64,000 nucleotides of DNA from Euglena gracilis. Lineage: Eukaryota. Under the pieces are notes generated by a model that ran no database searches, was not told where the DNA came from, and saw only the letters and a program-made list of their open reading frames with translations. Within the stretch, counting starts at the first letter, position 1, and each line of letters begins with the position of its first letter. The stretch covers positions 26,548,954 to 26,612,953 of the forward strand of contig CP154954.1 of assembly GCA_039621445.1 (NCBI GenBank), in the 5' to 3' direction. Below are positions 35,683 through 63,856 of the stretch, piece by piece. A program made the position numbers and the translations under genes.

Positions 35683-38600
35683 GTCCGGTGGATGTGCGTT
35701 TTCAGTCTGGTGGATGTGCGGTTTCAGGTCGGTGGATGTGTGTTTTCAGTCTGGTGGATGTGCAGTTTCAGGTCGGTGGATGTGCGTTCTCAGTCCGGTG
35801 GATGTGCGTTATCAGGTCGGTGGATGTGCTTTTTCAGTTGAGTGGATGTGTGTTTTCAGTCCGCTGGATGTGCATTTTCAGTACGGTGGACGTGCGTGTT
35901 CAGTCCGGTGGATGTGTGTTTCCAGTCAGCTAGATGTGCATTTTCAGTCCGGTGGGTACCCACCGGACTGAAAACACACATACATTGGCCATTGGCTGAT
36001 AACACACAACACAGGACTGAAGACGCACGTCCACCGGACTGAAAACACACATCCACCAGACTGAAAGTGCACAACCACCGACTTGCAAACACGCACCGGA
36101 CTGACAACGCACATCCATCGTACTGAAAAAAACGTCTCCACCGGACTGAAGCACACATCCACCGGACTGAAAATGAACATCCACCGGACTGAAATATACA
36201 TCCATCGGACTGAAAAAGCACATCCACTGGACTGAAAACGCAATCCACCGGACTGAAAACACACATCCACCGGAGAGAAGGCGCACATCCACCGTACTGA
36301 AAACGCACGTCCACCCGACAGAAACAGCACATCCACCTCACTGAAAACACACACCCAGCGAACTAAAAACACATATATCCACCGGACTGAAAATGCACAT
36401 CCACTCAACTGAAAAAGCACATCCAACGGTCTGAAAATGTACATCCACTGGACTGAAAGTGCACATCCACCAGACTGAAAACGCGCACCACCCAACTGAA
36501 AACCTCACATCTGGCCGACTGAAAACATACATCCACCAGACTGAAAGGGGAAAACAACCAAAAAGACTGGTTTTTGTGACAATTTGGTTGATTTTAGGTT
36601 CATCCTTGTGATCAAGGAAGGGAAATTTGAAACCATCATCAAGGCTGGGTTCATTTTCAGTCCAGTGGACGTGCATCAGTCCGTTGGATGTGGGTTTTAA
36701 GTCCGGTGGATCTGTGATTTAAATCTGGTGGACGTCCATTTTCAGTCCGGTGGATTTGTGTTTTCAGTCCGGTGGATGAGCGTCTTCAGTCCAGTGGATG
36801 TGTGTTTTCAGTCCGGTAGATGTGTGTTTTCAGTCCGTGCATTTCCAGGCTGGAGCATATGCATTTTTCTGGCCAGTGGATGCGTGTTTTCAGTCCAGTG
36901 GATGTGCGTCTTCAGTCCGGTGCATGTGTGTTTCCAGTCCGATAGATGTGTGTTTTCAGTCCGGCGGATGTGCGTTATCAGTCCGATGGATGTGTGTTCT
37001 CAGTCCGGTGGATATGTGTTTTCAGTCTGCAGGATGTCCGTTTTCAGTCCGGTGGATGTGCGTTTTCAGTCCGGTGGATGTGCGTTTTCAATCTGGTTGC
37101 TGTGTGTTTGCAGTCCGCGGAATGTGAGTATCAGTCTGGTGGATGTGTCTTTTCAGTCCAGTTGATGTAGGTTTTCAGTACAGTGCATGTGTGTTTTTCA
37201 GTCCGGTGGATATGTTTTTTCAGTCCGGTGGACATGCGTCTTCAGTCCGGTGGATGGGCATCTTCGGTCCGGTGGATGTGCATCTTCAGTCCGGTGGATG
37301 TGCGTCTTCATTCCAGCGGATGTGCGTTTTCAGTCTGCCGGATGTGAATTTTCAGTCCGGTGGATGTGTCTTTTCAGTCCGGTGGATGTGCATTTTAAGT
37401 CCGGTGGATGTGTGTTTTCTGGTGGATGTGCGTCTTCAGTCCGGTGGATGTGCGTCTTCAGTCCGGTGTTGTGTGTTATCAGTCCGGTGGTGCTTTTCAG
37501 TCCGGTGGATGCGCGGATTAAAGACCGGTGGATGTGTGTTTTCAGTCCGGTGGATGTGCATTTTCAGTCCGATGGATGTGCTTTTGCAAACCAGCGCAAT
37601 TCCGTGGATTTGCGCTTCCAGTCGGGTGGACGTGACTTTCCATGGATGTGGGCTTTCAGGCCGGTGGATGTGCGTCTCAAGGCTGGTGCGTGTACTTTTG
37701 CAAAATCGTTGCACTCTCGTGGATGTGTGTTATCAATCTGGTGGATGTGCGTTTCCAGGCTGGTGGATGTGTGCTTTCAGGCTGGTGGATGTGTTTTTTT
37801 CAGACCATTGGAGGTGTATTTTGGGGCTGGTGCAATCCCATGGCAGGTATGTGTGTTTTCAGTCTGGTGGACGTACATTTTCAGTCCAGTGGATGTGCAT
37901 TTTCAGTCCGGCGGCAATGCGCTTTCAGGCGGGTGGATTGGCATATTCAGGCAGGATCAAATAAGGAGGAAACAGCTAAAAAGAGATGGGGGGGGGCGGC
38001 GGACAAATTGCATGAAAAAGACATGCAAACAGCCCTCGATAGGCCCCCCAAATACCTCAAATTCAGCACCAAGCTTTAAGACCTGAAAGGGATCATCCCC
38101 AACACTCCTGCGGATGGGGGGGGGGGGGGGTGCTCGGAACCCATTTCAATGCAACCTGTGTTTTTTTTTGCATTCATGCAGATATAGAAGGATAGTATCC
38201 ACACTGGGGATCCTCCCATTTACTGAAAAGGAAAATTCACTGAAATTCACGAAGGATCACGTAATGCTTTTGCAAAGCCATTGTTGAATGCAGGGGCAGG
38301 GGGTGGCATTTGAATACCTGGAAACCATGGGGTCAGCCAGCAGCCTGTTTCCATCCAGGCTAATTTTTTTCAGCTCTGGCAACCCCCCTCCCAGGGGCCG
38401 CTAAGCGATGCCTGGGGCTGTGCATGATTCCCTTACTCGTCCCATATCACCTGAACCCAGGGGTGAACTAGACCCGGAATTATCAAACTGTAAAAACACC
38501 CACAGCATTGCCAAATTACAAACTATCAATTTTATGATTAAAATTTTGAGCTGGAGAGTCCAGTTAAAAATAAGTCATTTGAGGCGGCTCCGGGACTGAA

Positions 38601-40926
38601 AAAAAGACTGCTGGCTGGCTGGATCCCCCCCCCCCCCGCAGGGGATCCCCTTGGCTTAAACGGCGTCCTGGCTCCAGCTCATCCCAAGGCTTTGGCAAAG
38701 ATCCAAGTCAAGTGGTTTCCACATATTCATGCTGACGACCGTTGTCCTCTTTGTGCTGGACTGCTACGGAAGAATGGGAAGTGCGGCCCTTGTTGGCTTT
38801 CATTGGCAATCACGTTCGCCTGCTAATGGGACAACATGGCTGATGGGAGAGTGAAATTTTTTATTAAAAAAATGTTTTTTGACCTTGTTTTTGATGAGCT
38901 GCCAAAATCTGGGCAAACAAAAGGGACCAATTGCCAAATGTTCACTGCATAAATCATATGACCCTACGTTGCATGTGCCAAAGAAACCGTCATTGCCAGC
39001 TTCACAGAAAAACATCCCATCCTTGATCTCGTATGGGCTTCTAAAGAACCAAGAAAACTTGATCCAGGGATTATCATGTGGTGGAGATCAGGCAGTGGAC
39101 TTTGGTTGTTTTGCATATCCTCCCCTTACGGTGACCAAATATGCATGTGTATAATGTGCATCGATGTGTATCTGCCCAAGGCATCAATTCGCATTATTTT
39201 TTTTATTTTATGGTTTTGTACTATTTTGCAGGGTTATTAGGAAATATGCAGAGTTTTGGTTCAATTTTCCCTGCCAAGTCAATGCTTGCAAAAAAAATTT
39301 GACCCAAAAATGTCCTGGGCAGCCCTTTTCCGACCCATTCTCGCCCATTTTGACCAATTTCTGCACCCCGAAAGCGAGAAAAATCCGTTACAGTCCAGCC
39401 CCCCGAAGGGCGGCTGGAAATAAATAAATCTCGTTGATGGGGGGTCCGGGGCTGGAAAAAGGCTGCTTGCTGGAAAAAGACTGCTGGCTGGCTGGACACT
39501 CCAGGGGTGGGGTCAAATTTTGTTAAGCCTGGTGGAGCCTCATCTGCGGATGATGGTGGATGAAGGTGGTCATCCTGGCAACGAAAGAAGAACGTGTCAC
39601 GGCAGAAAGGGGGGATGGCGGTGCTGTTGCCGGTGTGAATGTGTAAACATAAATGGGTGATGGCGCTGAGAGATGGGGTGCATGAGGTCAGAAAGGTGCA
39701 AAGGGAGGGGGTTCGAGGGGAAGGAGGCTGCTTTTTCTCGCGCGACACAAACGGAAAGAGATTGAAATCTGCTGGGGGGGGCTGCATGCTGGACGCTTAA
39801 TATGCACATTTCCACAAACAAGCAACCTGGTATAAGAATGCTGCATAACTGCTTAACCTTTCTTTGAGGAATTTCTCGTCCATTCCTTCTCTCACTGTGG
39901 GCAGGACTTGCACGAAGCAGTGAGCAAAAAAAGGTGAACTGAAACTCATGCCGGCATTGCCCGCCCTGATGTTTTCCTCATGAGTGCTTTTACAGGGGGG
40001 AAATGTCTCAGGGCAGACATTGGGAATATTGCAAGAGGACAGGTCATGCAATACAGAAGGCATAGGGTAGTTTACTTGTGAGGTCCCCAAGCACAATCTT
40101 TGCCCCTCCTCCATAGCCTGATAGGCTGTGCAATCTTTGACAAAAGTAGTGATTGTCGTCACTGAGGGCCCAGTTGGGGGGGGGGGAGATTGTGAATTTC
40201 CTGCTTTCTGGGTTTTCGAGACCCAACAAACATTTGAAATCTCTCAATATGAACCAAATTGCAGAATTGAATGAAGTGCCAAAAAAAAATTTGTTTGGAC
40301 CCCCCCCTCTTGTCCAGGACACGCCAATGTTCTGAAAGTGCCGTTGACACGGGCACAAGGGGGTCAACAGCACACTGTGTCAACGGCACGATACCAAAAC
40401 AATGTGTTTGATGGCCCAATAACCATCGCCTCCACAATTGCACCATTTGACCTCTCATATTGCACGGGAAACGTTTGAATACATGGCAAGGAAGAAGATG
40501 GACATGGATTTCAAGTGTCTTGGCTAAATTTCCTTAGAAATGTTGGCAGACATAAGAGAAAAAATCACGTTCCAGGAAGTGCCGTTGACCCACGGGGGGA
40601 ATGTGTCTTGGACAAGGTGGGGGGAGGTAAGCTTTTTTGGTCCACAGGACGGTCAAGGGGAAAAAATCCAACAATGGCACCTCACCAGAGGTTTCCAGCA
40701 ATGGACAAAAAATGGGGGGGGGGTGTCACCACCCCCCGTGGTTGCACTAAGGCTTCTTGTCCTGTCCCCCCCCCTGGCCAGGAAACTATCACAGTGCCGA
40801 CAGGTTGGCCAGTATCAGGGATACTAACAAATTACGGACAGCTTGGCCAGTACCAGGGACTCTGGCAAGCTCTCAGGGTTGAGAGTTTCCTGGGGGGGGA
40901 GGGGGCGAGGTCTCTCCAGTCTGTGC

Positions 40927-43900
40927 CACCCAAGGCAGCTGGTGCTGCACGTTGGCGCTTAACCGGTTGTCCGCCACATCCATCCGCACCTGCATCCGCA
41001 CCGCCACCTCGCAGAAGGTGCTTAGTGCCGACCTCGGCAGCCCCCGATCAGTCCCAGTGTCGTGACTTATGCAACGCTGTTCGACGAAACAACGTCAACA
41101 ACCCAAAACTGGGTGGGGGGGGGGGATTTTGGGGTCGCGGTGCCGTTTTAAAACAGTTGGAAACGTGTGGGAGATGTCCCATCAAAAAATTACCCTTTCG
41201 TCCAACCCAGGCTGAAATTGAGTTTAAATTTAACTGACTTCAGTGGAGGGAGGTCTCCGAGAGCCATATGCCCACGTTCAAGCAGTCCCCTCATATGTCA
41301 CTCCGAGACCAGTCGGATGGAGTCGGCCACACCTCAAACTGCAGCCTGGTCAAATCTTCTCCCATTACAGATCCTCCAGAGAGATTGCTCTCACAATCCT
41401 GCGCATCCTCGGGTGTCCAAATTTGGTGCACCAGAACTTGGAATGAACATCTGGCCAGACAATTTTGTGGAGGGGGGGGTCCGGGCCAACCTACCCGCCC
41501 CTTGGGGGGGCTTGGGGGACCCACTTTTAGGGAGTGAATCTTGGGGTCAAAAAAATTTGCCGTTTCCCACCGAGAACAGAGGAAACCCCCGTTCAGCCCG
41601 ACCCCCACCCTGGCAGGGGGGAGGCTCGGCCTGGACCCCCCCCCCGGGGTCACGAAACTTTAAAAAAAAAAAATCAACAATCACACCTGCTTACTGCAAA
41701 GAAAGAAAATCACCACAAATCAAATTTCCGTTCTGACTTCTGGTGTTCAGCGGGCAGTGGGCAGCATGATTCCCAACGTCCAGGAATCCAGCACCATCAA
41801 ACCTTTGCCCAGAAAATAAGGCCCGTTGAGAGATGGTTTCTCCCGAGGCAGAGCGGCAGGGGGGTCGCCGCGCGCAGCCCCCCGGTCGGTGATGAAGTTG
41901 CCCGGCAGGCTCAGCACAAGGGACTGCAGGCCGGCGGTCCGCAGCGCCGCCAGCGCCTCCGCCCCGTTGTCCATCACAAAGTTGTACCCCAAACACAGGC
42001 CTTGCTGGAACTCCAACCCAGAAAGTGTTCGTTCCCTGAGGCCGCAGGACGTTTGCCTCCCAAGCTATTCTCCCGTCGTGGGCGGGGGGGGGGGGTCAGC
42101 ATTCCTTTTGATGAGAAAAGGGGTGTGTTGTGTGTAGGCCATTACCTAAGGACCCCGGGGGTGGGCCCACCGGCTTGCCATTTTGCCAGCACTGGGAAAG
42201 AAATTCCTCCACGCTGCACGCCGAGGTAGAAATGACGTCTTTTTAAGTTTTGGGGGTCCAGAAAAAACTTCGGCGCTTCACGCAAATCACTGGAAAAAAT
42301 TTCCACTGGCTGGCCCTGCTGGCAGACCCCCCAGGGGGGGTCCACTAGGATTTCCAGTAGCCAAATTTGGACTTGCTGCAGTCCAGCCAGGGTACTGCGA
42401 ACCCTTGAGCCAGGCTGTGCGTTCTGGAAGGTCCCCTGGAGTGAGGTGGAGGTTTGGAACGTTGCGAGCGTCCAGAAAGAGCTCCAAAATGACAAAAAAA
42501 AGTGCGCAAAAGGGGCCGTCGTTAACCACTTTGCGGGTGTCCTGGGGCCAGGGGTTGACAACAAAAAAAAGGGTCGGGGGAGGACAGCAAATGGGGGAGG
42601 GCAGCCACGCCTGGCCAGGTACAGCGCCAGGTGTGTGACGGACCCGGCGGCGAGGGCCGGGCCCAGGGCCAGCCCCGAGGCGTCCACGCCGTTGTCCTCC
42701 AGCCGCAGGGCGAGGCGGGCGAGGGCCCCTCGCACGGCCCGGCCCCGGTGGCTGGATGGACGGGGGGGGGGGGCAGGGCTTCCACCCACAGGGGGGGGGG
42801 GGTATGCAACAAGGCTCCTCGGAATATGCAATGCAAAAAAAAAATGCAAAAAGTGCAAGTCGTGTGTCAATTCCTTCAGGAGCACACTTTTACACTGCGG
42901 AGGACTTGGAAAAAATTCACTGGCTCAAAAACTGGCAACATTAAAGGAAAATGTGACACAAACTTGTGAAGTGATGGGGTTGGTTCTCCGAGTCCACTCA
43001 TATTTCATCAGGCAACTACTGATTATGTGAAATTGGTCCAATTGGAGCAATACGCCTGTGCAAATGCCTGAACAAAATAAAGCAGGCAAACTATGCCAAA
43101 AAAAAATGCAAAAAAATGAGACTTTTCACAAACTGCTCATTGTGCAAAAAAAAGATAATGCAAATTATGCAAAAAAGCGCAAATTTTCAAGATTATTGAT
43201 TATGCAAACAAAATGCAAACTATGCAACTTGCATATCCCCCCCTGCTGCCCACTTCTGAGGGCGGCAGATACGTTACCCCCCCCCCCCGGGAGGGGAGCG
43301 ATGGACGGGGGGAGGGGCATTTGGGCAGAGGGGGAGATGGCGAGACAACCCTGAGGCTGCGCCGCACCTCGAACAGGAGGGCTTTGTGTCGGGTTGGACT
43401 CAATTGTCACACGGTGCTGAGGTGCAAGCTGCGCCCATGCACCACTGAGCAAAATTGGCACGACAGAAGGCTTGGGAATTGCTTACATCATGTGAGGCAG
43501 GCACATGCCTCGGCAATATGGCGTAACGGAAGGGCCTGCACAGGGGGGAGGGGGCAAGCCACCGCACACAGCAGAGACGTGGACGGGTTTCCAAACAGCG
43601 GCAGGAGGCCTGGCCAGGCTGTGGCCAGCCCCACATCTCGGAAGGCCGAAAAGTCTCACGACCGCAGATGGTCGGCGCTCGGCAGTACCCCCGTTGCCTT
43701 ACCCCCCCCCGCCGACCGCGTTATCTGCCCAACCCGGAGTGCCATGGGGTGCCTGGCCACGCTCCTGGGGGGGGGGGGGGTCAGTCCTGCCTGCCTGGTC
43801 GTGGGAGAAATTTGTTATAAAAAAAGGGCTTTTATCTTTGACCGAGTGCCCGCGCACTCCCAATCACAAGCCTAAATCCCGTAGGGGAGTCGGATGTGGT

Positions 43901-45662
43901 TGAGGGGAGGAGGGTCAGCTACGCCTGGAATTCCAGGCGACACCAACTGGGTTGAGCCACTGGTCCGACCAACGCCCTCAGCACGCAGGGGCGAGGGAGC
44001 AACAGCCTGGACCCAAAGTCGCTGCTCCTTCCATCCGGTTCTGCCCACGCTTGCATCCATGTATGTTTGCACTGGTGGGTCAGTGTTGTTGTGTGCGTAC
44101 AATGTGCATGATTTGTTGGGGTCGCCTCACTGTCAAAGCCTAGGCTGTCATTCAGTGTTGCTGCTGGGAACCCTCTGGGGGGGGGGGGGGAGATCAAGCA
44201 ATATCAAAGAAAAGTGGAGAGACATTAATCAGACAGTGGTGAGATGCTGTCGCAAATTCCTTTCCCGTTTTCCGCTGTGAAATTCCAAAAACTTAAAGTT
44301 GAAGAAAAAATCAATTTGTTAAGGGTATGTTCTTGTGAGTCAGTATTGCTGATTTAGAAACCCATCATCAGATCTTGATTTGTGTTTACCTGCCCGCCCC
44401 CGATTGCATGAATGGCAGCGTCACCACACAGTGTTTGTCTGGTTTAGGTCGAGATTCCAATTGTCTTGCAAGGGGAGGGGGGGACATTACCCGAGGCCGA
44501 GGGTCGTTCTAACTGGGGTCACCTCCAAACTGCACGGGGGGGGGGGGATAGATGCAGCGTGGCCCGTGGCCCAAGTCCAGGTCCAGCACGGTCAGGGAGG
44601 GCAACTGGGCGGCCTTTGCTGCCAGCGCCGCTGCCCCCGCCTCCCCAACGTCATTGCCCCACAGGTTGCCGCCAGTGCCGGGCTGGCACTCCTGCCGACC
44701 AGGCCTCTTGTCAACACCCTGGTGGGGGGGGGGGTCCTGCTCAGCCCCACCCCTGGGTTTTGTTTGGGCCTTGGTCAGGGCGTTGTTTTGGAACCCCCCG
44801 GGGGTCCAGTGCAGAGACTGGAAAATTAAACTGTAAACTGGAAAAAGGCGACCTCCCCCATAGGGGTCCCCCGGCTGGAGCTGGGACCAACCAAGGTCAA
44901 ACCAGGTGCCAGAAAAAATGGCTCCGTGCGGATTTCCGGTGGTCGCCGTCGTGGTGGTCGGGCCGACCAGGTCGGGCCGACCACCATTTTTCCGCAACAC
45001 CCCCCCTTTTTGAACTTTTAAGCCCCCCCCCCCCCCCTGGTCGGTGGCTAGTTGGTGGGCATAAAAATGGTCTGTGGTGGCCAAAATCACCCGGAAATGC
45101 ATTTATGGGCAGTTCCCCCCCAGGACCCTGTCCTGTGGCGGTCCTGGGGCCCCAGTCTACCGCCATGCGCCCCGAAGGCCGCCTGGCCGAAGGCCGAAGG
45201 CCGCCGCAGCGGCCGAAGGCCGCTGCAATTCAGAACCTGAAAAGTTGATGATGTTATTTAAAGGCGTAGGGTTAGGGTAAAGTTTCCATTCCTAACTGTC
45301 CCATCCCATCCCCTCAACGTCGTTAAATTGGTGTCTGCAGGGGACCCAGCGAACCCAAAGAGGCGCCCAACTAGGGTTAAAAACATTGGGGGACCCGAGC
45401 GAGGCGCCGAAGGCGCCGAGCGAGGGTCCCCCAATGTGTATTAACCCTAGTTGGGCGCCTCTTAGGGGTCCTTTTGGGCTCCCTCCCCAGCAGTGGTGAA
45501 AATGATGCAATAGGCCCTAAGAAAAATGCCCCTTTGAAGTGTTTTTTGGAGTACATTGAAATTTGCTCCCGGCGTGCTGTTGTTTTTGGATCCTTGGACG
45601 ATGTTTTTTTTTTGGGATGGGCAGGATGGTGCATTCATGCGCGTGAACTTTTCAAAACGCAG

Positions 45663-45717
<55 letters not shown>

Positions 45718-48700
45718 ACTAGCTGGTTCCCTGCAGGCACCAGTTTATCACGCATCAGTCACCGAACCTTCAACTGGTCGGTCGACCCTTCAACTAGTTG
45801 GTGGTAGGCTGGAGGGGGGGGGGGCTGGCTAGTCGGCCGACTAGTCGGCTGACAACCCATTTGGTCGGCCGACCGATGACGCCAATTGGTCGGTCGGCCT
45901 GATCGACGGCTAGTCGGCGAAACAGGGGGGGGGGAGGCAGTTGGCCGACTGGTCGCCGAAATACCCACTCTAATGTGCTAATGAGTCAACCGCCGACTTT
46001 TAACCCCCCCTGAAAAAAAAACTTCGGATGGGGGTGGAGGGGGGAGTTTTCTGCCTCTCGTGAGAGTCATGGCCAGTTTCCCCCCAGGACCCCCCCCAGG
46101 ACCCACCGGGGGGCGGTACCCACTTCAAAATAACCTGAATTTGTGCTGCACAATTTCTGCCAAAAAGTTGCAGGACCCACCCAGGACCCTCCCAGCGCCC
46201 CCCCCCAGGACCCCCCCAGGACCCTCCAAATTACCCCCCCCCCAGGACCCCCCCCGGGACCCCCCCCCGGCCCCCCCCGGGGGGGGGGGGGGGGGTAGTC
46301 GGCCGCTTAATGGTCGGTAGCTAGTCGGCGAGACGGGGTGGGGGGGTATTGGTACACCCCCAGATGGAAATCTTTGGTCGGTGGGGGTCAGTGGGCCCTT
46401 GATGGGGGTGCGGAGGGGTAAAAAAACCAATGATGAAACAGGGATTACATGAAAATCCTTTAGAAATGCAAGCATTCTGCATCACGAGAGGCAGGAAACT
46501 CCTCCCTCCACCCCCATCTGAACCTCAAATAACAAAATCCCTTCTGAGTTGGCAACATACTCGGGGGCTAAGTTGTTTTTGTGGCTCACTTTGGCATAGG
46601 CGGGGGGGGGGGGGGGCTCCGCCCCCCACCCCCCCCCTCAAATAACGAAATCCCCTCTATGTTGGCAACATACTTGAGTGCTAAGTCCTTTTTGTGCAAA
46701 ATTTTGCAATTATATTGAAAATCTGATGGGGAGAGGTGTTCTTTTGCCATAAGTGGCCCAAAATGGGCATTTCCCCCCCCCAAGTTTTTGCATATTCACC
46801 CCCGATTGGGGGGTTCTGGAGCCATTTAAGTGGGATTTGATTGGTGGTGGGGTGATTTGGAAAAAAGTTTTTTTCAGGGGGGGGGGGTGGTGGCTTAAAT
46901 CTCCAGAAGGGGGGGGGGGGGTAGTGCAAAAAAATGGTGGTCGGGCCGACCAGGTCGGGCCGACCACCACAGGTCAATAAGGTCGGGCCGACCATGGTCG
47001 GGCCGACCTCCCTGGTCGGGCCGACCAGGTTGGGCCGACCACCGCAAGGACGACCACCGGAAATCCGCTCGGGGCTAAAAAAAAAAAATCGAAACTGGAA
47101 AAAAAATCTAAAAAAAACTGCCAACTGTGCAAAAAACAAAATCGAGTTCTGACCCATAATTTGTCCAGCCGCCCAAAGAGCGGCTGGACAATGAGAAAAA
47201 CTCGTTGATGGTGGACAGGAGGTCCAAGGCTGTTGGCTGGCTGCCCTCTCCCCCAGAGGCTTAAGCGATGCCCTGGTCTTGGCTGGGTTGTACCCAGCCT
47301 AATTCCTTGGAATCATCCATGTTGGGTCCCGGGTGGCATTTGGTTTTGGAGTGGGACGTGCTGTATCACACTCCCCCTTCCCCTGGGGGTTGAAGGCGCT
47401 GATTCGATGGCAGGGTTACGGTACGAGGAGTCGAAGTCTTTTTTTTTGTAACTGTTCGGGGGCCCAGAGTCTCTTGTTTTGCATGAGCCCTGTGTGCGTA
47501 ACTCCATTTTATTGTGCAAGTCCTTTTGTAGTCAACTGTTCTGAGGGGCCACAAAATAACAAAATCCCTTGTGTAATGTGTGCCCTGTGTGTGCGAACTC
47601 CTTTGCCCATGCCCTTTTTTGAGGGTAACGTTTCGCAGAAAACACCTGTATGCAAGTACGTATGGGAAAGCTCTAAAGCTTTCTCGAACGTCGCTCAAGG
47701 TCGCTCAAGGTCGTTCGAGGAGGATTTTAGATAAACCCTCCTGAGGGAGGCTTAAGGACGTTGGGGGAGGCTCCAGTTCGAACGCTCAAGCTCGAGCCCC
47801 CCCCTGATTCCGTCAACAGGATGTTGTGGTGTCAAAACCAAGGATTTTGGGTTTCTCTGCGACAATCCATCTAATTCGCCAACCATTATGGCTAACATTT
47901 GGCCATTATTTCATCCTGTATTTTAATCTTTGTATTTATTTTCTTTCAAGGAAATTTGGGGGCGACCAGTGATGTGTACCCCCCCGGGAAACTGTCACCT
48001 GACAGGTTGGCCAGTACCGGGGACCCTGGCAACTTCCTATCGTGACAGGTTGGCTGGTACTTGGGACCCTGACAGTTTCCCGGGCGGGACCCTGACAGTT
48101 TCCCGGTAGGGCATTTCAAGGGAAAGTCAGGGTCACCTCTCCACCAGGTTATCCTACCCCCCCCCCCCCGGGAAACTGTCATGCCCGAGAACCTGTCAGG
48201 GACCCGCCCGGGAAACTGTCAGGGTCCCCGGTACTGGCCAACCTGTCAGTATGGGAAGTTGTCAGGGTCCCCGGTACCGGCCAACCTGTCAGGGTCGTTT
48301 TTCATAGGGGTCGACCCCTCCACAAGGACTTTTAAGGCCGGGGGGTAGGGGTCCCCCCACCTACCCTGGGTGCCCCTACCGCGGGGGGAGGGAGTCCGGG
48401 GGGTCAATTTGGGGGAAAAGAAAATTTTCGGCACAAAGAAACGAAAGATACCGAACCCCCGCCTCCGACGGGACGCACAAAGCCCTTGCGGGACGCACAA
48501 AGCCCTTGGGGGACCACTCAGGGGAGGGGGTCCGGCAGGGCAGAACGGGAAGGCCTGGTGGGGGGGGGGGGTCGACCCCCCCTACGCACCACAGCATTTT
48601 CACCGATTTCGGGAAAACGAAGATTTTGGCCGGGAAAATTTTTGAGAATTTTTTTGAAAAATGAACCCAAAACACATGATTTTTTGATGGAAAACCACAT

Positions 48701-51700
48701 TTTTTCACAAAAAAATCTCAAAAAAATCAGGGTTAAAATAGGTAGTTCGGGGGTGAAAAAAACGAAGGTCAAAAAAAGTGGACCAAATTCTGGCACAGTC
48801 AAATTTTACTGACAATTTTTTCTCTTTGAAATTTTTTGGACTTTCAATGGCATTATTTTGCTTCAAAACCCTGTCAAAACCCAAATTTTGAGAAAATGTC
48901 GAATTTTTGGAAGGTGTGAAAAAAATGGGGCTTTGGGTGGTTTTTGGGGGGGACCCCTATGTGGGTCCAAAGTGGGTCAAAAAAAACACCTGGCGCCGAA
49001 GGCGCCGGAAAAATTTTTTTGGGGCCAAAAATTGGTGCTCCCGGAAATACGGGAAGAGGTGGTGGGGGGGGGGGTGGTCGACCCCCCCCCAGCCACGATG
49101 CACGGGGTGGGGGGGTCGACCCCACCACCCACCATCCTGGCTGTTCGGCCGATTCCCGTTCTGCCCTGGGGTCCGGCAGACCCATCTACCAGCCTACCCA
49201 ACCCACCCCAAGGTCCATAGTTGGATAATTGGGATCCCTGGTGCCACCACAGCTTTTGTGCCAGAAAAAAAAATACCTCCAAGCTGAATTCAGGGGCAAT
49301 TCCCTCCGGAAAAAATTCGGCTTTCAAATCTGTACACCAGGAAAAAAAAAACGGAAAGGTCTGGGGAGACCTCCACATCCACCCAGATTTTCGTTCAGCC
49401 CTGGGGTGACTCAAACCCGAACACCCGCTCTCTTGGATGGAAGAAGAACGGGACCGTGATGTCCCAGTTTTCTGTGCCAACTGCCTACAGGCAGACATTT
49501 GGTTGCCCGCAGATGGCGGAAACCTCAAGATCGCACCCAGAAATGAGACTGCAAGACGAGATGTCAAATGAACCAATTCAAAATTTTAAAGAAAGCAGAA
49601 GCTTTTGAACGTGGCAGAATCGACTTTGACTTTCAGGAATGCACAAAAGGGCGGTTGCCCCAACTTTTCAATGACGACGACTGGAAAAAGGTGATGTAAC
49701 CTTTGTTCCTAAAAACAGACTACGGTCTCTGAAACAACTCAACGTCAGTTACTGCCCAATCATCTGCCAGAAAGGCAGATGAGCAGGTTAAGAGACTTGT
49801 TCAGAATGAGTGTGTACCATTCTGAAACCACATGTGACCCAATGTGCCAGCACATCCCACGCGCACATCAGGCTATCGCGGGAGATTGAAGAAATGAGAA
49901 GTTGGGTTTTCCCAAGGATGGACATGGAGAATCCTGACAACCTACTCTAGACCTGCGTTCAACGGAAATGACCCTTGTACAAGACCCAGATATGGGTGAG
50001 CACTTCAGCTCAGACGCTGAGGGTTTCCAACACTCAACATCAGCCACAGCTAAACTTTCTCTTTGGGTGTAGTCCCACATAATGAGCGAAGTCTGAAGCA
50101 CAAATGTGCCGTCCATCGTCATGTTCGACGTCCCCCCGAAGTTTTTCAAGTTCGGTGGACAACAAGTTGACAGTGGAGAGCCACCATCAACTAAATTGCA
50201 GCTTACAGATTGCAAAGACACCACACTGTTAGTAAGAACATACACAAAGCACAGCATGTGTGTCATAATTATTTTGTGTGTTCGCAGTCCAAAACCTTCG
50301 AGGTAATTGGGAACCAGATCATGGTTCCTGGTGCCCATCCCACACGGGACTATGCCTGGCATCCCGACTGGCCTGGTCTAAAGGAAAATCAGGCTTAACC
50401 CTGGGAGGGGGATGTGTACCAGGCAGCCATGATGCCATGGCTCTGTCTACCAGAGAAAGGCTACGGCCTAGAATCTGGCTACGGCCAGGCTGTATACAGC
50501 ACTATGTGAAAGCTTACCTCCCCCCCCCTTGTCATTGACACGCCAATGTTCCAGGAAAGTGTCGTTGACACGGGGGGGGGGGGTGTCAACGACACGCCGT
50601 GTCAACGACACAGTACCTAAAAAAAATCGACCGCACCAGTAACAATGAATGACCCCGTGAATGCATGTCCGCCACACTGTGGCCGGTGCGAATGGGGATG
50701 ACATTCGAAGCCATGGCTGGAAAGAAGATTCAACCCATTTTTGAAATGTCCTGGCTGAAATTTGTCAGAAACTGTGGCCAACGCAAAAGAAAAAAATATG
50801 TTCAGGAAAGTGTCGTTGACACGGGGGGTGTGTCAACGACACGCCGTGTCAACGACAAGGGGGGGGGGGAGGTAGGCCAACTGGCGAAACTAAGAATCTC
50901 GTGTGACTCTCAGCGATCTGAATTAAGACTTCTGGTTCCTAAACCCCCCAAAATAAGACCCCCCCCCGGCCGGTCCGAGCAAAAATCTATGAAATGCCCC
51001 CCACCCCCATAAATAAGACCCCCCTGCGGGCGCGAAGCGCCGGATTTTTGAAAAATGGGACATTTGGGGGGGGGGGGTAAATATGCCATTTTGGGACAGT
51101 TTTCGCACAATTCAGCATATTTTCTCTAATTTGTCTGGCGCGAAGCGCCGAATTTTTCAAAAATTGGTATTTTGGGGTGAATTTTTGGACATTTTGGGGG
51201 GTCTTTTCTTCATTTTTTTTCCAGCAATTTTTCCAGCAAAAATCCATAAAATGGACCCCCCCCCATGAATAAGACCCCCCCTCGGGCTTTCCAGCAACCG
51301 ACCCATGAAATGGACCCCCGGTCTTATTTGGGGGGGGGGGCTAATTTCCCCTTGAGAATTTTGGGTGCTTTTGTAAATTTGTAAATAGTTGCAGAAGCTT
51401 GGGACGGACCTCAAACAGTACTGATCTGATTTTTTTGGAAATGGGAAAAGCGAAAAGCACAGGGCGAGACGTGCATTGTACCCCTCCTGAAGCCAGCATA
51501 TACCAAGTGGCTGACACTGCGCCTGCCAGGCCTTAATACAATAATTGCATAAGGCCTTAATACAATGCGGCCTTAATACAATAATTACAAATTTCCAAGG
51601 CCCAAGCCCGTACTGCATACAGTGCAATGTGTTTGATTCCCGGGTTTGGTGGGCTAAGATTCCACACCGTGTCCCATTCAAGAAGCTTTGGAACCAAAAG

Positions 51701-54700
51701 TTAGAGAAGTATGAGGCATTTTGGGATCCACTCCCAAACCTCTTGGGGCTGGCAAAGCACCTATGCCCACTGATATTTGTACATTGCGTACACAACTCAT
51801 TTTTGTTCACGGATCTTATGTTTGTACAGATCCTCAGACATGGCACAATTCAAACGCACCACAAGTGTTTTGGGAAGGGCACCCTACATCAAAATTAAGT
51901 GTAAAGGGCAAAAAGTTCACAAGTGGGAGAGAGTTGTTTCCATTCCCCATTGTCCACAAATAAGTCCTTCTCATTTTGATGATGTCCTATGTGGCTGCCA
52001 CACGTTTATTCGTGATACCTGGGAACCCCTTCTAATTTCATTAAAACCCCGATATAAAGCCATAAGTGCAGACACGGTTGCTTCAATCACAAAGCAATTT
52101 CAGGCCAAGCAAGGGGGACCCCAGGTGTGGGGGCACTCCACCAGAGGAGCTTGGGTTGGTTTACTCATAAAACCGGGCCTTTCTGCCCACGAAGTTACTG
52201 TGACAACCTCAACATTGCTTCTGGTGCAGTCCCACAGAAAGGTTGTCCAAAATGTGCTTGAGATTTCTAATAAACTATCACTTTCCCCGTTATCGCAAAA
52301 ATATTCATCATTTGGAAGCTGAGGTTTGCGGCAAACCCAGCTTGTTGAGGATTTGGAACACGCAGTGAAGACTTGTCCGCGAGTTTGGGCCGTTTGTCCG
52401 TTCAAGGTAAGATTCACAACTTGGAAATTTTGAGTGAATAAGGCTGCCATCAGGGGTTTTTTTGAGAACCCCAGGGGCCTACAGGCCGGCTGGAAAGGGG
52501 TGCTGACTGCAAAAAAAAAGTGCTGGCTGGACCCCTGGGGGGTCCAGGAGAGGGTCCAGGGGGAGGTCGTCGCCGGACAGCGGGGAGCTGCTGGCTGCTG
52601 GAAAAAGAGGTGTATGGGAAGGGTACCCTGTACGGGAAGGCCTGGTGGGGAGGGGTCGACCCCCCACCCAGATCGCTTGGCTGCAGTCATTTTTCTTCAC
52701 CAAGGGCTTGTACGTCGTCATTGGTTGCCCTGCCCTGGGTTCACCTGTGGTTCGTGCTTGGGGAGCCCGAACCCTCATTCGCGCCTTTTCGCGACTTTTT
52801 CGGGAAATTTCGCGTTTTTTGGGGGTGTTTAGTATCATTTTCAGGTAGACTTTTTGGTCCTTGGAATGACCAGGTTTTGTGCTGAGGTCTTTACGTGTGT
52901 CATGGTGTCATGCTGCAGCAAAAGTTTGAGGCGGTTGGCGGACCGGCGGCGTGGCCCAGCCCAGCCCGGCCCGGCATGGCCCGGCTAGCGGTGTTATTTA
53001 CTTGTGCTCTGAAGGGGGGGGGACCCGGTTTGGGCCCTTGTGCATTTTTCTGACTTCTTTCACTGGGGATGGTGGACGGGGGGCGCATTATTTGGCCAAC
53101 CAGTCTCTCACCATTCCACCCCGGCACTGCGCGAGGGTGAGCGACTGCAGGGCGGGCAGGGCGGGGACCACATGCGCCAACGCGGCGTCACCGATGCCGT
53201 TGCCCCCACGGGGCGGCTCAGTGACGGTTGTCCACCGGGGGAAACAAACGTGCCTCGCGAACAATGCTCGCCCTCCTTCAGCCTTCTTTGGGCTGGGGCA
53301 GGCTTCCCCCCAACGTTCCGTCCATGGGTTTTTTTTACCTCCCCCCTCCGTCCAACGACCGCTAAATATCGCTACTGACCGGGGGGTGGTCGCTGTTCTG
53401 GCCAAACATCGCGGATTGGTCGTTAGACAAGACCACGGTCAAGAACGCGAATGTCTGGAAAAAAGGGTCACCTGGAAAAAGATCTCTTACTGACCAGGGG
53501 GTGGTCGTTGGGCAAGGGGGGGGGGAGGTAAGGCCGGGGGTCCCCCCCCACTCACCCATCATCGGGGGTCCCAGGGGAACCCACTCACTTTTCCCCAATG
53601 GCCAAAGAATCGCGAAAAATGCTAAAAATCGCACCTTTTCAATAAATTTCAGCCCCTTTGGTGCCGAAAAGTAAATCCCCCCCCCCCCCCTGGGGGGACC
53701 CCACCGGACCCACCCACCCTACCCCCCCCCCGGGGGTCCAAGACTAAAAAAAAACCCCGGTTCTGTCCCACCCGCCAGGCCAGCCGGCCCCTGCCTGGAC
53801 GCGAGGTCCAGGCGCAGGGAGGCCAGGGCCGGGAGGTACTCCAGGGCGCCGAGGGCGGGCAGGGCGGTGCCGGTGAGCTGGTTGCTGCCGAGGCTCAGCG
53901 AGAGGGCCCGCAGGCCCCGGCAGCGCGCCAGGGGGGCCAGGCCGAGCAGCCCGGCGGGGCCCAGCTGGTTGTCGTGGGGGGCAGGGCCGCGCCGTGGCGG
54001 GGCCCGCCCAGCGGGGACCAACACCGGTTGCGGCGGAGGCCGCAAACGCTGCGGCATGTCAGTTGAATACCTGTCAGGGGGGTACAGCGAAAGAAAGTGG
54101 AGGGCGGCAAAAAAGGCCAGTGGGTTGAAATCAGAGCTGTGCGGGGAGGGGCTTTATTTGACGGGGGACACAAATGTATGAATGACCCATTGAGTCCCTC
54201 CCCCTCTTCGTCTGGAAGCTTTGAGGGGACGACTCCGTTTGCAGTACTGCAACTCCTGGCATGCCACTTGTACACATCCACATCCACACGCATCCATCCA
54301 TCCATCCATCCGTCCGTCCGTCCGTCCATCCGTCCGTCCGTCCGTCTGTCCATCCGTCCGTCCATCCGTCCGTCCGCCCGTCCATCCATCCACCAACCCA
54401 CCCACCCACCCACACCCACCCACCCACCCATGGATACAGACAGACAGACAGACAGACAGGCAGGCAGGCAGACAGGCAGACAGGCAGACAGGCAGGCAGG
54501 CAGGCAGGCAGAGAAGACAGACAGACAGACAGACATGCATACATATTCACATGTGTATGCACATGTTGTTTACATTTCGGACCTTTCCAGCCAACAGCGA
54601 TCCCGCCCCCAACGCCGGGCCAGCAGCGGCCCTGGCCCACGTCCAGTTCCAGGTCCTGCAGCGCCGGGCCCCAGCCCTCCGCCACCAGCCGCAGGCCCTC

Positions 54701-57678
54701 CGGCCCCAGGTGGCCCGCCCTCAGGTACAGGCGCAGGCTGGCCCCGGCCCCCGAGATGTGAGATGGGGGGGGGGGCAAACCCACCGCCATCAAACGGCTG
54801 GCGGGCACGGGTGGGGGGGGGGGGGGGCAGCGCGGTGCGGCAGCGGAGGAACGAGACGCCGGGCTTCTTTTTGAGCACTCCCAGCGGGTGGTCGACCCAC
54901 GCCAACTCACAGGTTGGCCAGAAACGAAGGCCTGAAAACTTCCCATCCTGAAGATATGAACCGCCCTGAGTTTGTCCGTTTTCCGGGGGGACAGGAAGGC
55001 CTGAAAGGGGGAGGGGGTCTGCCCCCAGGAGGTGAAGGAGCCCCCACTAACCAGTTGGCACTACAACCACCCCAACCAATTTGCAAGACAAAGTTCATTC
55101 GGCACCGCAGGTATTTTGGTGTGGGGGGGAGGGGTTGTCTGCCCTGAAGGGGATGGATGGGGGGAGGGAAGGGGGGACCCCCTCCCACCCATTGGGATTC
55201 AGGATCCAGGATTCCCATTCAGCCCTGGGGGCAGGGAATTTCTTAAGGACCCCCCCGGGGGGGGGGGGACCAGCCCCCGGCTGGCAAAAAGGCTGCTGGC
55301 TGGATTTGAGCTGCTGGCTGGACCCCCCCCCCCCCCCCGGGGGGGTGGGGGGGGTCCGGGGCTGGAGCGGGCTGGGCTGGGCTGGGTCGAGGAAAAACAA
55401 ACACATTTTTCTAACACATTTTGGCCATTTTCGACATTTTGATGGGTGGAGGTAGATCAAGGCTGGGGGGCTGTGATGGAGGGGCTGTGATGAGGGGGAA
55501 AAATGCAGGGATAAGTGAGCTGGACAGCCCAGTTGGCTGGCCGGCCTGCGGCCGGCTGGGCCGGCCTCTGGCCGGGCTGGACCCGACTTTATTTCACTCG
55601 ACCCCCGGGGGGGGGGGCTCCCAGCCCGAATTTGGGCTGCTGGCTGGATTTGAGCTGCTGGCTGGCTGGACCCCCCCCCCGGGGGGTAGGGTACCCTCCG
55701 GCTTAAGAAATTCCCTGCCTGGGGGGCGGGGGGCTGTGGGAGGTGGGGGGGGGGCGGTCACATGGAAAAGTTAATGCCATACAGCAGCATGGTGTGTGAG
55801 GTGTGGCTCTTGTGTCCCAAAGCAGACAGGTAGCATGTCAGCCGCCGCTCTTCTGGAAGGTCACCGCGGGGGCCGACCGGAGAGGGCGGGGCCGGCGCCA
55901 AGCGCAGCCAGCGCGGTCGCCCCGCGGCGCCCCATGTAGCTGTCCTGGGTGTCGACCGGCCCCACGCCCCGGGGAAAACCCGCAACCACCCACCAATTAG
56001 AGGGGTAAAACCCTCTAATTGAAGCGCAGGGCTGTGACAAGCGCAGGGTCCAAATAAAAGCGCACCCTCCCCCGCCGCCAAAGGCGGCGGTCCGCTACAA
56101 GCGCACCCCCATTTTTCGATGGGATATCTAAAGGAAATCAAAAAAAAATCGCGCAGGTGGGGTCCAAATAGAAGCGCACCCGCCGCCAGAGGCAGCGTTC
56201 CGCTATAAGTGCACCCGTGCTTCTATTACGGGGGGTTAGTGGCTGGCTCCCTACGGATGGGTGGCAGACGGGTGTGGGCAGCAGTGTTCTCTGGAGGGAT
56301 GTGTTCTGGGGGGTGGGGGGAGGGAAGGCATGCTGCCCACCCGCCAGCCTTTCCAGGAAACTCATTCAGCCCTTGATGGGAGGAGTAGGTTTGCTGCACT
56401 TGTTCGGCCCCGGGGTCAAGGTTCCAAGCCAAAGTTGGTGGCTGGGGGGGGGGGGTAAGTGCCCGACTTGATCAGGGTGGAACTGGGGGAGGACACGGGG
56501 GGAAAGCTGCTTTCGCAGAATGGTCCAGAGCCAACCAGTCAAATGGGAGGTGGCAGCCACTGGTTTCTTGTACCAGATCAACAAAGCAAAGAAAATGAGT
56601 GAATGAAATGAGTGAATAATATGAGTGAACAATCATACATCAATCGAGGAAACCAATCGGCAGCACGCCACCCCACGGAGAGCGGGGGGCGGCGAGGGTC
56701 AGGCGCGCCAGCTGGGCGATGGGGCGGAGGGGGGCCATCGCAAAGGCGTCGGTGCAGCAGCAGTTCTCGAGGGACAGGCGGAGGGCCTCGCAGCCGGCGA
56801 GGGAGGCCAGGGCTGCCAGGGCGGCCACGCCGTCGTCCTTCAGGCGCGCGCAGTGGAGCGCCAGGGTTGGGAGGAGGGCCGGGGCCCCGAGGGGACGGGA
56901 GGGCTCGGGGTGAGGGTAGGGGGTCCGACCTCCCCGTCAAGGGTGTCAAGGGGGGGGACACCCCAGCCAAGGTGGAACAGTGCTTGCTGGGTTTGTGGCG
57001 CAATTCTCTATTTGATGGCAGAAATTGGGGACTCTGTTTAACAATTATGCAAAAGAACCGTGCAGGTGAGACAACAATTGAAAAAAAAACCGACAGTCAC
57101 CAAAGCCCTCGCCTTGATTGTTTTGTCCCCCTCAATCGCCGACGCGAGGGGACTGCTGGACACTTTGGTGGGGTCCAGGCGGCGCTTGCATTTGGGACCA
57201 ACGTTCGCCTGATAGGAAGCAACTGCCAAGATGGAGAGGGCAACGCCGGGCCATGGGCCCTGCGTTGGCCCTGGCAACGTGGATGGTGGACTGGACCAGG
57301 TAAGGGGCGACCTCCCCGCCAGAGATTTTTCTGAGTTTGGTGACCCGGGGGAGGGGTCCGAATGGTCCCCCCAGGGGACGGTAACTGCCAAAATGACCCC
57401 CCCCCAAGGGTGGGTTCCCCGAGGCCCCCCCCCTGACCCCCCCCCCCGGGAGATGGGACGAACCGCTGTGGGTCGCCCAAAAGAAAAGGCCCTCTTCTCC
57501 CACCCCCAGCCCGGGCCAGCAGCCCCGGCAGCAGTGCCGCGGTGGCCGGGGTGACCCGGTACGCCGCGTGCCGCCGGCCCACGCTGCCGCGCACGGCGCG
57601 GCACACCTGCCCGAGGGGGCCGGGGCCCACAAAGTCGCTGACCAGGCACCAGAGGTCCCCCGGCAGGGCGGCCGCCAT
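40927..57678 (-). CDS. F-box-like + leucine-rich-repeat (RNI-like) protein, at least 427 aa, 12 exons, mostly non-canonical structured introns
   Basis: Exons: 57678-57514, 56897-56694, 55953-55879, 54739-54638, 53976-53797, 53201-53133, 44667-44566, 44040-44013, 43609-43585, 42727-42617, 41990-41874, 41029-40927. Joins are in frame and rebuild LRR units across junctions (LELDV|HDNQLG, LDLAS|NGIGD, SLTL|NLWGNDVG, LDLGH|NRMEG, LALYL|GYNFV). The N-terminus LPGDLWCLVSDFV...LGQVCR is F-box-like. The intron 1 acceptor and the 3' end (a further intron at 40926, or read-through to TGA near 40873) are uncertain. Confidence 0.85.
42789..43245. mobile_element. Probable hAT-type MITE in intron 9; related copies at about 4970-5080 and 58220-58710
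   Basis: TIR CAGGGGGG..TATGCAA / TTGCATATCCCCCCCTG with a degenerate flanking duplication; shared CACTTTTCCACTGGAGAGGACT-like core. Confidence 0.55.
50517..50872. mobile_element. TA-flanked MITE; a related degenerate copy lies at about 40298-40627
   Basis: TA|CCTCCCCCCCCCTTGTC ... GACAAGGGGGGGGGGGAGG|TA; the internal sequence is similar to 40320-40627. Confidence 0.8.
50942..51341. mobile_element. TA-flanked MITE with AATAAGACCC repeats
   Basis: TA|AACCCCCCAAAATAAGACC ... GGTCTTATTTGGGGGGGGGGGC|TA. Confidence 0.6.
51600..52200 (+). pseudogene. Degenerate tyrosine recombinase of DIRS type
   Basis: Two overlapping frames give KYEAFWDPL, LYRSSDMA (Arg box), IKCKGQK, ISADTVASITK and WGHSTRGA (HxxR box). 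The C-terminal catalytic Tyr region is not seen. Confidence 0.7.
53338..53528. mobile_element. TA-flanked MITE, 191 bp, in intron 5
   Basis: TA|CCTCCCCCCTCCGTCCAACGACC ... GGTCGTTGGGCAAGGGGGGGGGGAGG|TA; short version of the 5716/21449 family. Confidence 0.8.
54290..54535. repeat. Compound microsatellite (CATC)n/(CGTC)n/(CACC)n/(CAGA)n/(CAGG)n in intron 4
   Basis: Read directly from the sequence. Confidence 0.95.
55232..55717. mobile_element. hAT-type MITE, 486 bp, in intron 3
   Basis: TIR CAGGGAATTTCTTAAG / CTTAAGAAATTCCCTG with perfect 8-bp TSD CCTGGGGG. Confidence 0.92.
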
Positions 57679-57685
57679 TGGGAGG

Positions 57686-57720
57686 CTGAACGGCGGGGGA
57701 ATGGGACGGGGCCCGTGGGG
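57686..57720 (-). promoter_or_regulatory. Candidate splice acceptor (possibly spliced-leader trans-splice site) just upstream of the LRR ATG
   Basis: A C-rich tract ends in TTCAG|CCTCCCAATG. Confidence 0.4.
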
Positions 57721-59147
57721 GGGGGGGGGGGGCAGGGCAGAACGGGAAGGTCTGGTGGGGGGGGGGGGGGGGGGGGCCCCTCCCCATCCACCACAGCATT
57801 TTTTCACAGATTTCCATCCGGCGCCGAAGGAGCCGGGCAAAAATTTTGGGGTAGACAATTGGTGCTCCTGGAAATAGGGGAGGAGGTAGTGGGGGGGGGG
57901 GGGGTCGACCCCCCAGAATTAGCAGGATGAGTCCGAATCCTGGCACCTGGCGCCGGAAGAAGCGTTCGCTTTCTTGAAAATTAAGGGAAAGAATTCAGAA
58001 GATCCGCCATCGTCGAGGGGAAGTCACAAAAAAACATGCAGTAAAGGACTTAGTAAAAATATTTTTAGGGCCAAATCTTCGCTGGAAAAAAACCTGGACG
58101 ACGAACGGCACCCCCCCCCCCGGACTCCTTTTGAATACCTGCTGAATGGTAATGTGAGGTCACAATTCAAGGTGCCCCTTCTACCCCCCACACATTCTTT
58201 GGGAACACTTTGGGAATATGGGGGGAATATGCAACAAGGCTTCCTCAAAATATGCAATGCAAAAAAAATGCAAAAAAAAAGTGCAAAGAAATGCAAAAAA
58301 AATGCAGTATGTGTATAAATTCCTTTAGGAGCTCTCCGGGGATGTACACTTTTCCACTGGAGAGGACTTAGAAGAATTCCAATTGCTCCAAAAATACAAC
58401 ATTAAAGGAAAATGTGATGCAAACTTGTGAAATGATATGGTTGATTCACCCAGTTGCATCCACTTGTGTTTCATCATGCAGCCACTGCTTAAGTGAAATT
58501 GGTCCAAAAACAGAAAATAAGCAACCTCCAGTCGTCTGCTAGTGGAGCAAATTGTTTGTGTAAATATAAACAATGAACAACATTAGAAAAGGAAAATATG
58601 CAAAAAAATGCAAATATGCGACTTTCACAAAATTTTCATTAAGCAAAAAAAATATCCAAAAGTGTCCAAATTTTCAAGATTTTTGATTATGCGAAAAATT
58701 GCAAATCATCCAGGTTGCATAATCTGTCGGGAATCCAACAAAAAAAAAATCTTGTTATGCAGTGTTTTTTGAAGGCCCACAGAAGACACATTCGAAGAGG
58801 AGTTGTGAATCCAGAGCAACAAACATGTGCGGTGAAAGATGCACAGGCAAGTCGAAACAGCGGATCGGAGCAGCAGTTGTTTGAGTCTCATGCTGATACC
58901 TCCTGGGATGGAAAAGGATGACCTTTGAGACGGCCCTAAAGGAGAACACATCTGGGTAATAGAGCAGCTTTTAATAAAGCAGTAATAGAGCAGACGTTTG
59001 GAAACTTCAGGGGTCCGCCCCACCCAGGTCGCGTGGGACCACAGCAGGGGGGAGGGGTCGCAAGGGGAAATAAAAGTGGACGGTATATGCACACAGAAAG
59101 ACAGACAGACAGACATATATATACCTATTATTTTTATTTATATTTGT

Positions 59148-63100: not shown

Positions 63101-63738
63101 TTACTCACCACAAGGCCAGGCAGAGCCCCACACCGCCAGGTCACAGCATCCCCTTGGCATGCTAACAGCGGTTACTCTAGTCCCAGGCACCCGAGACCTG
63201 AAACAGCACAGGGGAGGAGCCTCCCTTCCTTTGCCCTGTCCATTCCAGGTCCCCTTCCACGCTGAGAGGGACGACGACTCATGTCCCACGAACAGCGCGG
63301 GCTTCTACGCGCGAGAGGGCCTGCTCTCCCCGTGGACTCACGCGCAGGGGCCCGTGCAGCAAGGCGTCTACACATGCCAGGGGCTGCACGGGGAGGAAAC
63401 GGAGGGGCCTGCTCAAGCCGTAGGTCCGTTCCTCGAAGTATACACCATAAGGTGGCCACACAGACAAGGGGCCGGGCCTTAGGCAATGTATTTGGATAAC
63501 AACCATACCCGGTGGCCTCCCCGCACCACCGGGATGGTGCCGGTCCGTCCGGAGCCCCCCTGTCCTGTTTAATAGTAACCGGACGGCAGGGTCGGGGGGC
63601 GCATAACCGGCTGGTGGGTGCCTCCTTCACCACTGACTCAGGGACGGCAAATCCCTGGGCACACCAAAGGTTCAGCCCAGTGGCCCCGTGTCTTTGGGTC
63701 ACTCCGCCTGGCACTGAAACAGGTTCAGCAGGTTTTCA
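60191..63738 (+). repeat. Head-to-tail array of a 660-bp non-coding, highly structured unit (5 full copies + 248 bp); candidate rolling-circle insertion
   Basis: Units start at 60191, 60851, 61511, 62171, 62831 and 63491. The only difference I saw is C vs A at 60336. Flanked on both sides by (TATG)n. The strand is assigned from the G.U bias of the helices. Confidence 0.95.
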
Positions 63739-63856
63739 TATGTATGTATGTATGTATGTGTGTATGTATGTATGTATGTATGTATGTATGTATGTATGTA
63801 TGTATGTATGTATGTATGTATGTATGTATGTATGTATGTATGTATGTATGTATATG
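63739..63856. repeat. (TATG)n microsatellite, right flank of the 660-bp array
   Basis: Read directly from the sequence. Confidence 0.95.

Follow-up and report, generated by a model that had tools for sequence, protein, structure and literature searches.

An expressed LRR gene of Euglena gracilis and the paired ends of its nonconventional introns

The data presented here indicated that a 64,000-nucleotide (nt) stretch of Euglena gracilis DNA (contig CP154954.1; the whole stretch is referred to as the window) contains a real, spliced, and expressed LRR gene on the minus strand. Very probably, this is a euglenid F-box-like/LRR gene of 13, probably 14, exons that is split almost wholly by nonconventional introns and that may be processed by machinery reading the geometry of the intron ends. 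The terminal pairing of the introns was real, and the helix was a strong filter on the choice of splice partner but not a unique address.

Layout and transcripts of the LRR gene

Four of the 24 listed sequencing runs (X1, X3, X21, and X24) were aligned to positions 38300-58100. Among the 15 joints listed of 223, five non-GT-AG junctions that joined six exons were seen in RNA contigs and in raw reads, and the remaining 10 joints connected G-runs and repeats of the introns or flanks. All five junctions were contained in one X1 contig (740 nt) and in one X3 contig (685 nt), contigs not being single molecules. In the order of introns 1 to 5, the raw-read counts were 3, 2, 1, 0, and 2 in X21 and 2, 3, 0, 1, and 3 in X24; the first two counts of each series belong to the joints that flank exon 2. 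X24 showed a strand bias over exon bins (e.g., 0.88 versus 0.05, and 0.59 versus 0.03 in the exon 8 bin), which was consistent with minus-strand RNA. Because the four displayed X1 pieces differed from the window by only 0 to 1 letters, the allele of the window was the expressed one. Over positions 40660-41028, 6 of the 369 letters of the X3 contig were unlike those of the window, and further differences were seen at 56814 and 57588, which indicated that alleles or strains differ.

The preliminary description of positions 40927-57678 had proposed 12 exons and a product of 427 amino acids (aa). The RNA added the joints of introns 1 and 2 (Table 1), so the intron that had been counted as the third was the fourth, and the span held 13 exons. 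The exon that had been omitted was likely exon 2, which had a GC content of 50% (59-79% in the other exons); this low value suggested that the description had made use of coding look as well as pairing. Its introns 3 and 4 were exact in the RNA. Six introns had been predicted before the RNA was consulted, using the helices in that description and the published spacing (a paired triplet with 3 nt upstream and 5 nt downstream). Full checking was possible for two of these predictions, and both were exact; two more were right at the one visible end (53796 and 41028), and the intron 6 acceptor had been placed only roughly (about 53211). At the intron 6 donor, the X1 piece stopped at 53796 with 10 unaligned letters beyond. 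At the intron 12 acceptor, an X3 piece (record 7) ended at 41028, its 363 further letters lying elsewhere, which fit a one-base slide.

Because all five RNA-shown joints lay above 53796 and the joints listed were a subset, the lower exons are predicted, with indirect support. Specifically, the exons below exon 6 were rebuilt from pairing, frame, and depth, and 8 of the 13 introns are based on prediction together with indirect evidence from depth. Observed X1 depth was near-exact in three bins (1.15, 1.96, and 2.33, with 1.15, 1.95, and 2.39 expected) and above expectation in three others (3.74 versus 2.67, 0.61 versus 0.48, and 2.62 versus 2.41). The bin with a depth of 1.15 (43588-44248) held exons 9 and 10, and its expected value was derived from 50 exon letters at a depth of 15.2. 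Two further candidate exons, near 43400 and 43660, were rejected, since the X1 depth fit the exons at 44041 and 43609 and left at most about 26 letters at 43400. The strongest register of intron 8 (44565/44040) was dropped because it broke the frame at 363 aa.

The start ATG (57678-57676) lay within exon 1. The X1 contig began at 57686, where it was preceded by 10 unaligned letters, and this site was directly behind a C-rich tract and CAG. The site is a probable trans-splice acceptor, as expected for leader trans-splicing.

At the other end of the gene, the 13-exon model gave 433 codons to 40927. Position 40927 was not a stop, and the unspliced frame ran on to 449-450 aa, so the proposed length of 427 aa was not retained. 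This unspliced form of exon 13 was present in X3, in which record 7 spanned 40660-41028. A 13th intron was nonetheless probable, because X1 and X21 covered 40983 but not 40932 and because an 11-pair helix joined 40932 to 39737. The X1 contig of depth 15.2 was seen at both 40983 and 39664. Across the registers of intron 13 that were tried, the C terminus fell at 431-604 aa. X21 reads over exon 14 carried at least 6 other differences, and a repeat copy is possible there. A donor at 40926, the end given in the preliminary description, was also tried with an acceptor at 40542 (score, -16.8); this pair requires coverage at 40932, which was missing in X1 and X21, but it may apply where contig or read ends are clipped.

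Table 1. Exons and introns of the LRR gene, in window coordinates; triplets are those at +4 to +6 and -8 to -6, and former numbers are those of the preliminary description
Feature	Position	Strand	Evidence and remarks
Exon 1	57530..57686	-	X1 contig piece 57529-57686, starting at record letter 11; F-box-like N terminus
Intron 1	57144..57529	-	RNA joint 57142/57529, slide 1; nonconventional, 11-pair in-register helix, GGG/CCC
Exon 2	57114..57143	-	30-nt micro-exon, 50% GC; flanking joints in X1 and X3 contigs
Intron 2	56869..57113	-	RNA joint 56868/57114; nonconventional, non-slidable, 7-pair helix, GAG/CTC
Exon 3 (LRR-like)	56694..56868	-	Contig pieces 56693-56868, X1 and X3
Intron 3	55954..56693	-	RNA joint 55952/56693, slide at most 3; nonconventional, GCC/GGC, 5 pairs then extended helix
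Exon 4	55879..55953	-	Joints on both sides, X1 and X3 contigs
Intron 4 (formerly 3)	54740..55878	-	RNA joint 54739/55879; CGG/CCG, 9 pairs; matches published code
Exon 5	54638..54739	-	Contig pieces, X1 and X3
Intron 5 (formerly 4)	53977..54637	-	RNA joint 53976/54638; CAG/CTG, 9 pairs, non-slidable
Exon 6	53797..53976	-	Contig piece 53796-53976; two LRR units
Intron 6	53202..53796	-	CAG/GTG, bulged helix (2 pairs then bulge); donor fits RNA, acceptor predicted
Exon 7 (predicted)	53133..53201	-	Frame and LRR spacing
Intron 7 (formerly 6; predicted)	44668..53132	-	8,465 nt; CAG/CTG, 10 pairs; best of 9,960 downstream positions
Exon 8 (predicted)	44564..44667	-	3' end 44564 or 44566; Pfam LRR_6 E 0.092
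Intron 8 (predicted)	44042..44563	-	ACG/CGT; register uncertain
Exon 9 (predicted)	44013..44041	-	28-29 nt; X1 depth fit
Intron 9 (predicted)	43610..44012	-	GT-AG ends plus 8-pair CAG/CTG helix; intermediate type
Exon 10 (predicted)	43568..43609	-	Depth fit, bin shared with exon 9
Intron 10 (predicted)	42741..43567	-	CGG/CCG, 8 pairs
Exon 11 (predicted)	42617..42740	-	Frame and LRR spacing
Intron 11 (formerly 10; predicted)	41991..42616	-	CAG/CTG, 5 pairs
Exon 12 (predicted)	41874..41990	-	Frame and LRR spacing
Intron 12 (formerly 11)	41030..41873	-	CGG/CCG; acceptor fits RNA
Exon 13	40873..41029	-	Spliced at about 40933, or read-through to TGA at 40875-40873
Intron 13 (probable, indirect)	39737..40932	-	11-pair helix; best acceptor of 2,592 for donor
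Exon 14 (probable, indirect)	39633..39736	-	X1 bin depth 2.33 observed versus 2.39 expected

Positions 60192-63739 held a near-identical 660-nt tandem repeat in about 5.4 copies (copy starts at 60192, 60852, 61512, 62172, 62832, and 63492), with an ATGT microsatellite on both sides. A degenerate 22-nt satellite formed long arrays over about 4000-37950; these changed strand several times and included duplicated blocks (e.g., 18766-20845 and 28970-31050). Inside predicted intron 7, MITE-like inverted repeats were found at 47998-48293, 44921-47075, and 46023-46522; their high depth in the RNA runs was drawn from repeat copies. Fragments of a second gene lay on the minus strand at about 1330-3530, including a subthreshold RRM_1 match at 3366-3527 (E 0.0087). 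This second gene may have conventional introns, with two candidate exons behind CAG acceptors.

Encoded protein

The product is, as judged from its predicted sequence, an LRR protein. A search with exon 6 matched four LRR proteins (best E, 3.5e-8), and the model protein contained nine matches to an LxxLxLxxN-type motif. These matches were spaced 27-29 residues apart except for one gap of 70 residues, and the frame stayed open in the rebuilt model, as the preliminary description had stated in reporting in-frame joins with LRR periodicity. In Pfam scans of single exons, LRR_6 was found below the cutoff in 2 of the 10 exons scanned (exons 6 and 8), and no F-box was matched.

F-box/LRR proteins with ribonuclease-inhibitor-type repeats have a short N-terminal F-box motif that is followed by the repeats. 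The predicted protein resembled this family in having a short F-box-like N-terminal motif and then repeats of 27-29 residues, and it differed in that exon 1 lacked a Pfam F-box match. Among 1.84 billion representatives, exon 1 had one relative, P0005 (58% identical; E, 2e-4); Pfam searches of exon 1 and of P0005 gave no F-box or other match. In the Atlas comparison of exon 1, an F-box cluster ranked fourth (0.91; 112 shared features) behind three unnamed clusters, which we regard as a weak lead. A full-length relative was not found via the exon 6 search or the exon 1 alignment, and both of these are weak negatives. A role as a ubiquitin-ligase adaptor is plausible for the predicted product.

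Pairing of intron ends and choice of splice partner

The introns were like the euglenid nonconventional introns described in the available portions of three sources (PMC3935182, PMC4770533, and PMC11170887) in that they lacked GT-AG, had a helix between +4 to +6 and -8 to -6, and had Y/R borders. They were also alike in having short direct repeats at the junctions and helices that varied between introns, and there was no difference in kind. Neither GT-AG nor GC-AG was reached at any slide in the five RNA-shown introns or in 12 of the 13 model introns. In all five RNA-shown introns, base +4 was paired with base -6, and the 3-nt and 5-nt spacers held together with the pairing; the in-register helices ran for 5 to 11 pairs (Table 1). 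Y/R borders were complete at both ends in three of these five introns and in 8 of the 13 model introns, and short direct repeats made 11 of the 13 slidable.

These results agreed with the preliminary description, which had recognized euglenid nonconventional introns with terminal helices and had reported that ten of eleven introns lacked GT-AG; predicted intron 9 is the single GT-AG intron of the rebuilt model. The four long helix pairs that had been quoted were present on the minus strand at the places given. One CAGGC/GCCTG pair fit the former intron 10, but this pair recurred many times. An 8-bp target duplication split 3+5 around the helix, the mark of young hAT-MITE introners, was sought at the intron ends, and the mean number of matches was 2.7 of 8, versus 2.5 for noncognate pairs. 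Because no 8-bp duplication remained, a transposon origin, if any, would be old here. An Rfam scan of 38000-64000 gave 0 matches.

The preliminary description had likened each helix to an address. If this idea is taken strictly, an intron's own helix alone picks the donor-acceptor pair and pairing suffices to reconstruct the gene, which we consider unlikely. We scored anchored helices with Turner stacking, simplified loops, and no initiation term, so the energies are relative. Among true ends, the cognate acceptor was the best for all five RNA-shown donors (and for 10 of 13 donors overall), the true assignment was the top of 120 permutations, and the mean score was -22.6 on the diagonal versus -4.9 off it. 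The acceptor of the predicted 8.5-kb intron ranked first of 9,960, although helices of predicted introns had been chosen by the analyst and their ranks, being circular, were left out of the evidence. An address would also be compatible with published work in which nonconventional introns leave after spliceosomal ones and transcripts that keep all of them accumulate (PMC6221363), since this order of removal means that many intron ends coexist.

Other results argued against a unique address. Given the true donor, the true acceptors of introns 1 to 5 ranked 6, 4, 14, 1, and 1 out of 9,960 positions downstream. When 400 random positions were examined, 26% had, no more than 1.2 kb away, a partner for an in-register helix that scored -20 kcal/mol or better, which scaled to an estimated 21,649 decoy pairs gene-wide; 221 decoys (exhaustive count) had the published signature and about 567 had Y/R borders. 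A nearest-helix rule found at most two of the five RNA-shown acceptors at the four thresholds used. The join that skips exon 2 (57529 with 56869) was in frame and scored -24.1, within 1.6 kcal/mol of the real join (-25.7), and two other skip joins scored better than the cognate helix. An isoform without exon 2, from 57529 to 56869, is a possible alternative. The decoys and the RNA-shown exon that had been missed were at odds with the claim that the gene can be reconstructed from end pairing alone; what stood of the address idea was that each RNA-shown donor had its best partner in its own acceptor. Equilibrium folding of 11 introns shorter than 1.2 kb gave a terminal helix probability of at least 0.5 in 4 of 11 introns folded alone, in 5 of 11 with 10-nt flanks, and in 1 of 11 with 40-nt flanks.

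Published splicing code and proposed mechanism

A published code for these introns reads 5'-N3CDG-/-CH'GN5-6/R (PMC12501133). It is improbable, in our estimation, that only introns of this form are cut and that pairing is secondary. This idea draws on knock-ins in which point changes in CAG or CTG abolished splicing, as did a CCC/GGG swap that kept the pair (PMC12501133), and 6 of the 13 model introns matched the code with N5. However, the full fit among the RNA-shown introns was one of five (intron 4). Introns 1-3 reached CDG at no slide and opened with G(+4):C(-6), which is outside the code, and the exon after intron 5 began with C rather than a purine. As far as the available portion of that source goes, introns 1-3 and 5 fall among its unclassified or minor classes: 28.9% of all E. 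agilis introns were unclassified (PMC12501133 Dataset S7), and CAG-CTG followed by C made up 0.29% (PMC12501133). In a 2016 set, 22 of 55 introns lacked CAG/CTG (PMC4770533). Given the 28.9% and the 22 of 55, the departure seen in this small sample is not improbable. Introns 1-3 are a clean natural counter-set to the failed CCC/GGG swap.

We consider it quite unlikely that a relaxed spliceosome removes the introns and that the helix merely brings their ends close. Predicted intron 9 combined GT-AG ends with a helix, and C-runs were present near several acceptors, but 12 of the 13 introns had GT/GC-AG at no slide, and the published timing (PMC6221363) and the excision of nonconventional introns as full-length circles (cited in PMC11282704) are unlike spliceosomal introns. 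That the joined forms are a processed DNA copy or assembly artifacts is hardly credible: X1 and X3 were only guessed to be RNA, but the same joints recurred in unassembled RNA-seq reads from two studies, and X24 was strand biased.

Our tentative proposal is that the intron-cutting machine measures helix geometry, that is, a paired stem with overhangs of 3 nt and 5 nt, and tolerates G(+4):C(-6) openings, with intron-specific helices and a second cue steering the choice of partner. The finding of three consecutive RNA-shown introns without CDG/CH'G, together with thousands of decoys, pointed to geometry plus an extra cue. Published work indicated that the helix is required for splicing and that the cuts lie at set distances from it, 3 nt on the 5' side and 5(-6) nt on the 3' side (PMC12501133). 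The cutting and joining machinery would read this geometry more than the letters of CAG/CTG. The intron ends may be derived from inverted repeats whose sequences drifted while compensatory changes kept them paired, which would make each helix different. The helix would narrow the choice of partner about thousand-fold without fixing it, and for this reason a further cue would have to decide; exon definition, protein-assisted cotranscriptional folding, or the decay of misspliced products could provide it. Our literature search, with most subscription papers outside it, found no papers that dealt specifically with G(+4):C(-6) introns or with the helix as an address.

Much of what this gene displays is already familiar. 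Intron-specific helices have been described (PMC4770533), and paired-end splicing is published; for E. gracilis, 12 introns of this kind in one gene are nothing unusual. An RNA-based annotation of this species lists 413,446 introns, and 86.4% of the 72,771 non-slidable ones are nonconventional; in the reference gene set, nonconventional introns are 1.65% of the non-slidable introns (PMC12501133 SI). These values bore out the view in the preliminary description that standard gene finders miss such introns. Predicted intron 9, in which GT-AG ends and the CAG/CTG helix share the same frame, was like the intermediate ("both") introns (PMC4770533; PMC12501133 Fig. S12). The predicted 8,465-nt intron exceeded the longest nonconventional intron (5,931 nt) given in the available portion of a 2024 survey, which was based on a fragmented draft.

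As found, the gene matters little, because it is one among tens of thousands built alike in Euglena. It is a test case for two questions that have been posed for these introns (PMC4770533), namely, whether CAG/CTG acts as a signal or is a mark left by the origin of the introns, and whether the borders can be set by cis signals alone. Introns 1-3 and the near-tied exon 2 skip are natural test pieces for a reading of geometry. If this proposal is true, the "unclassified" 29% of introns would in large part belong to one class with the rest.
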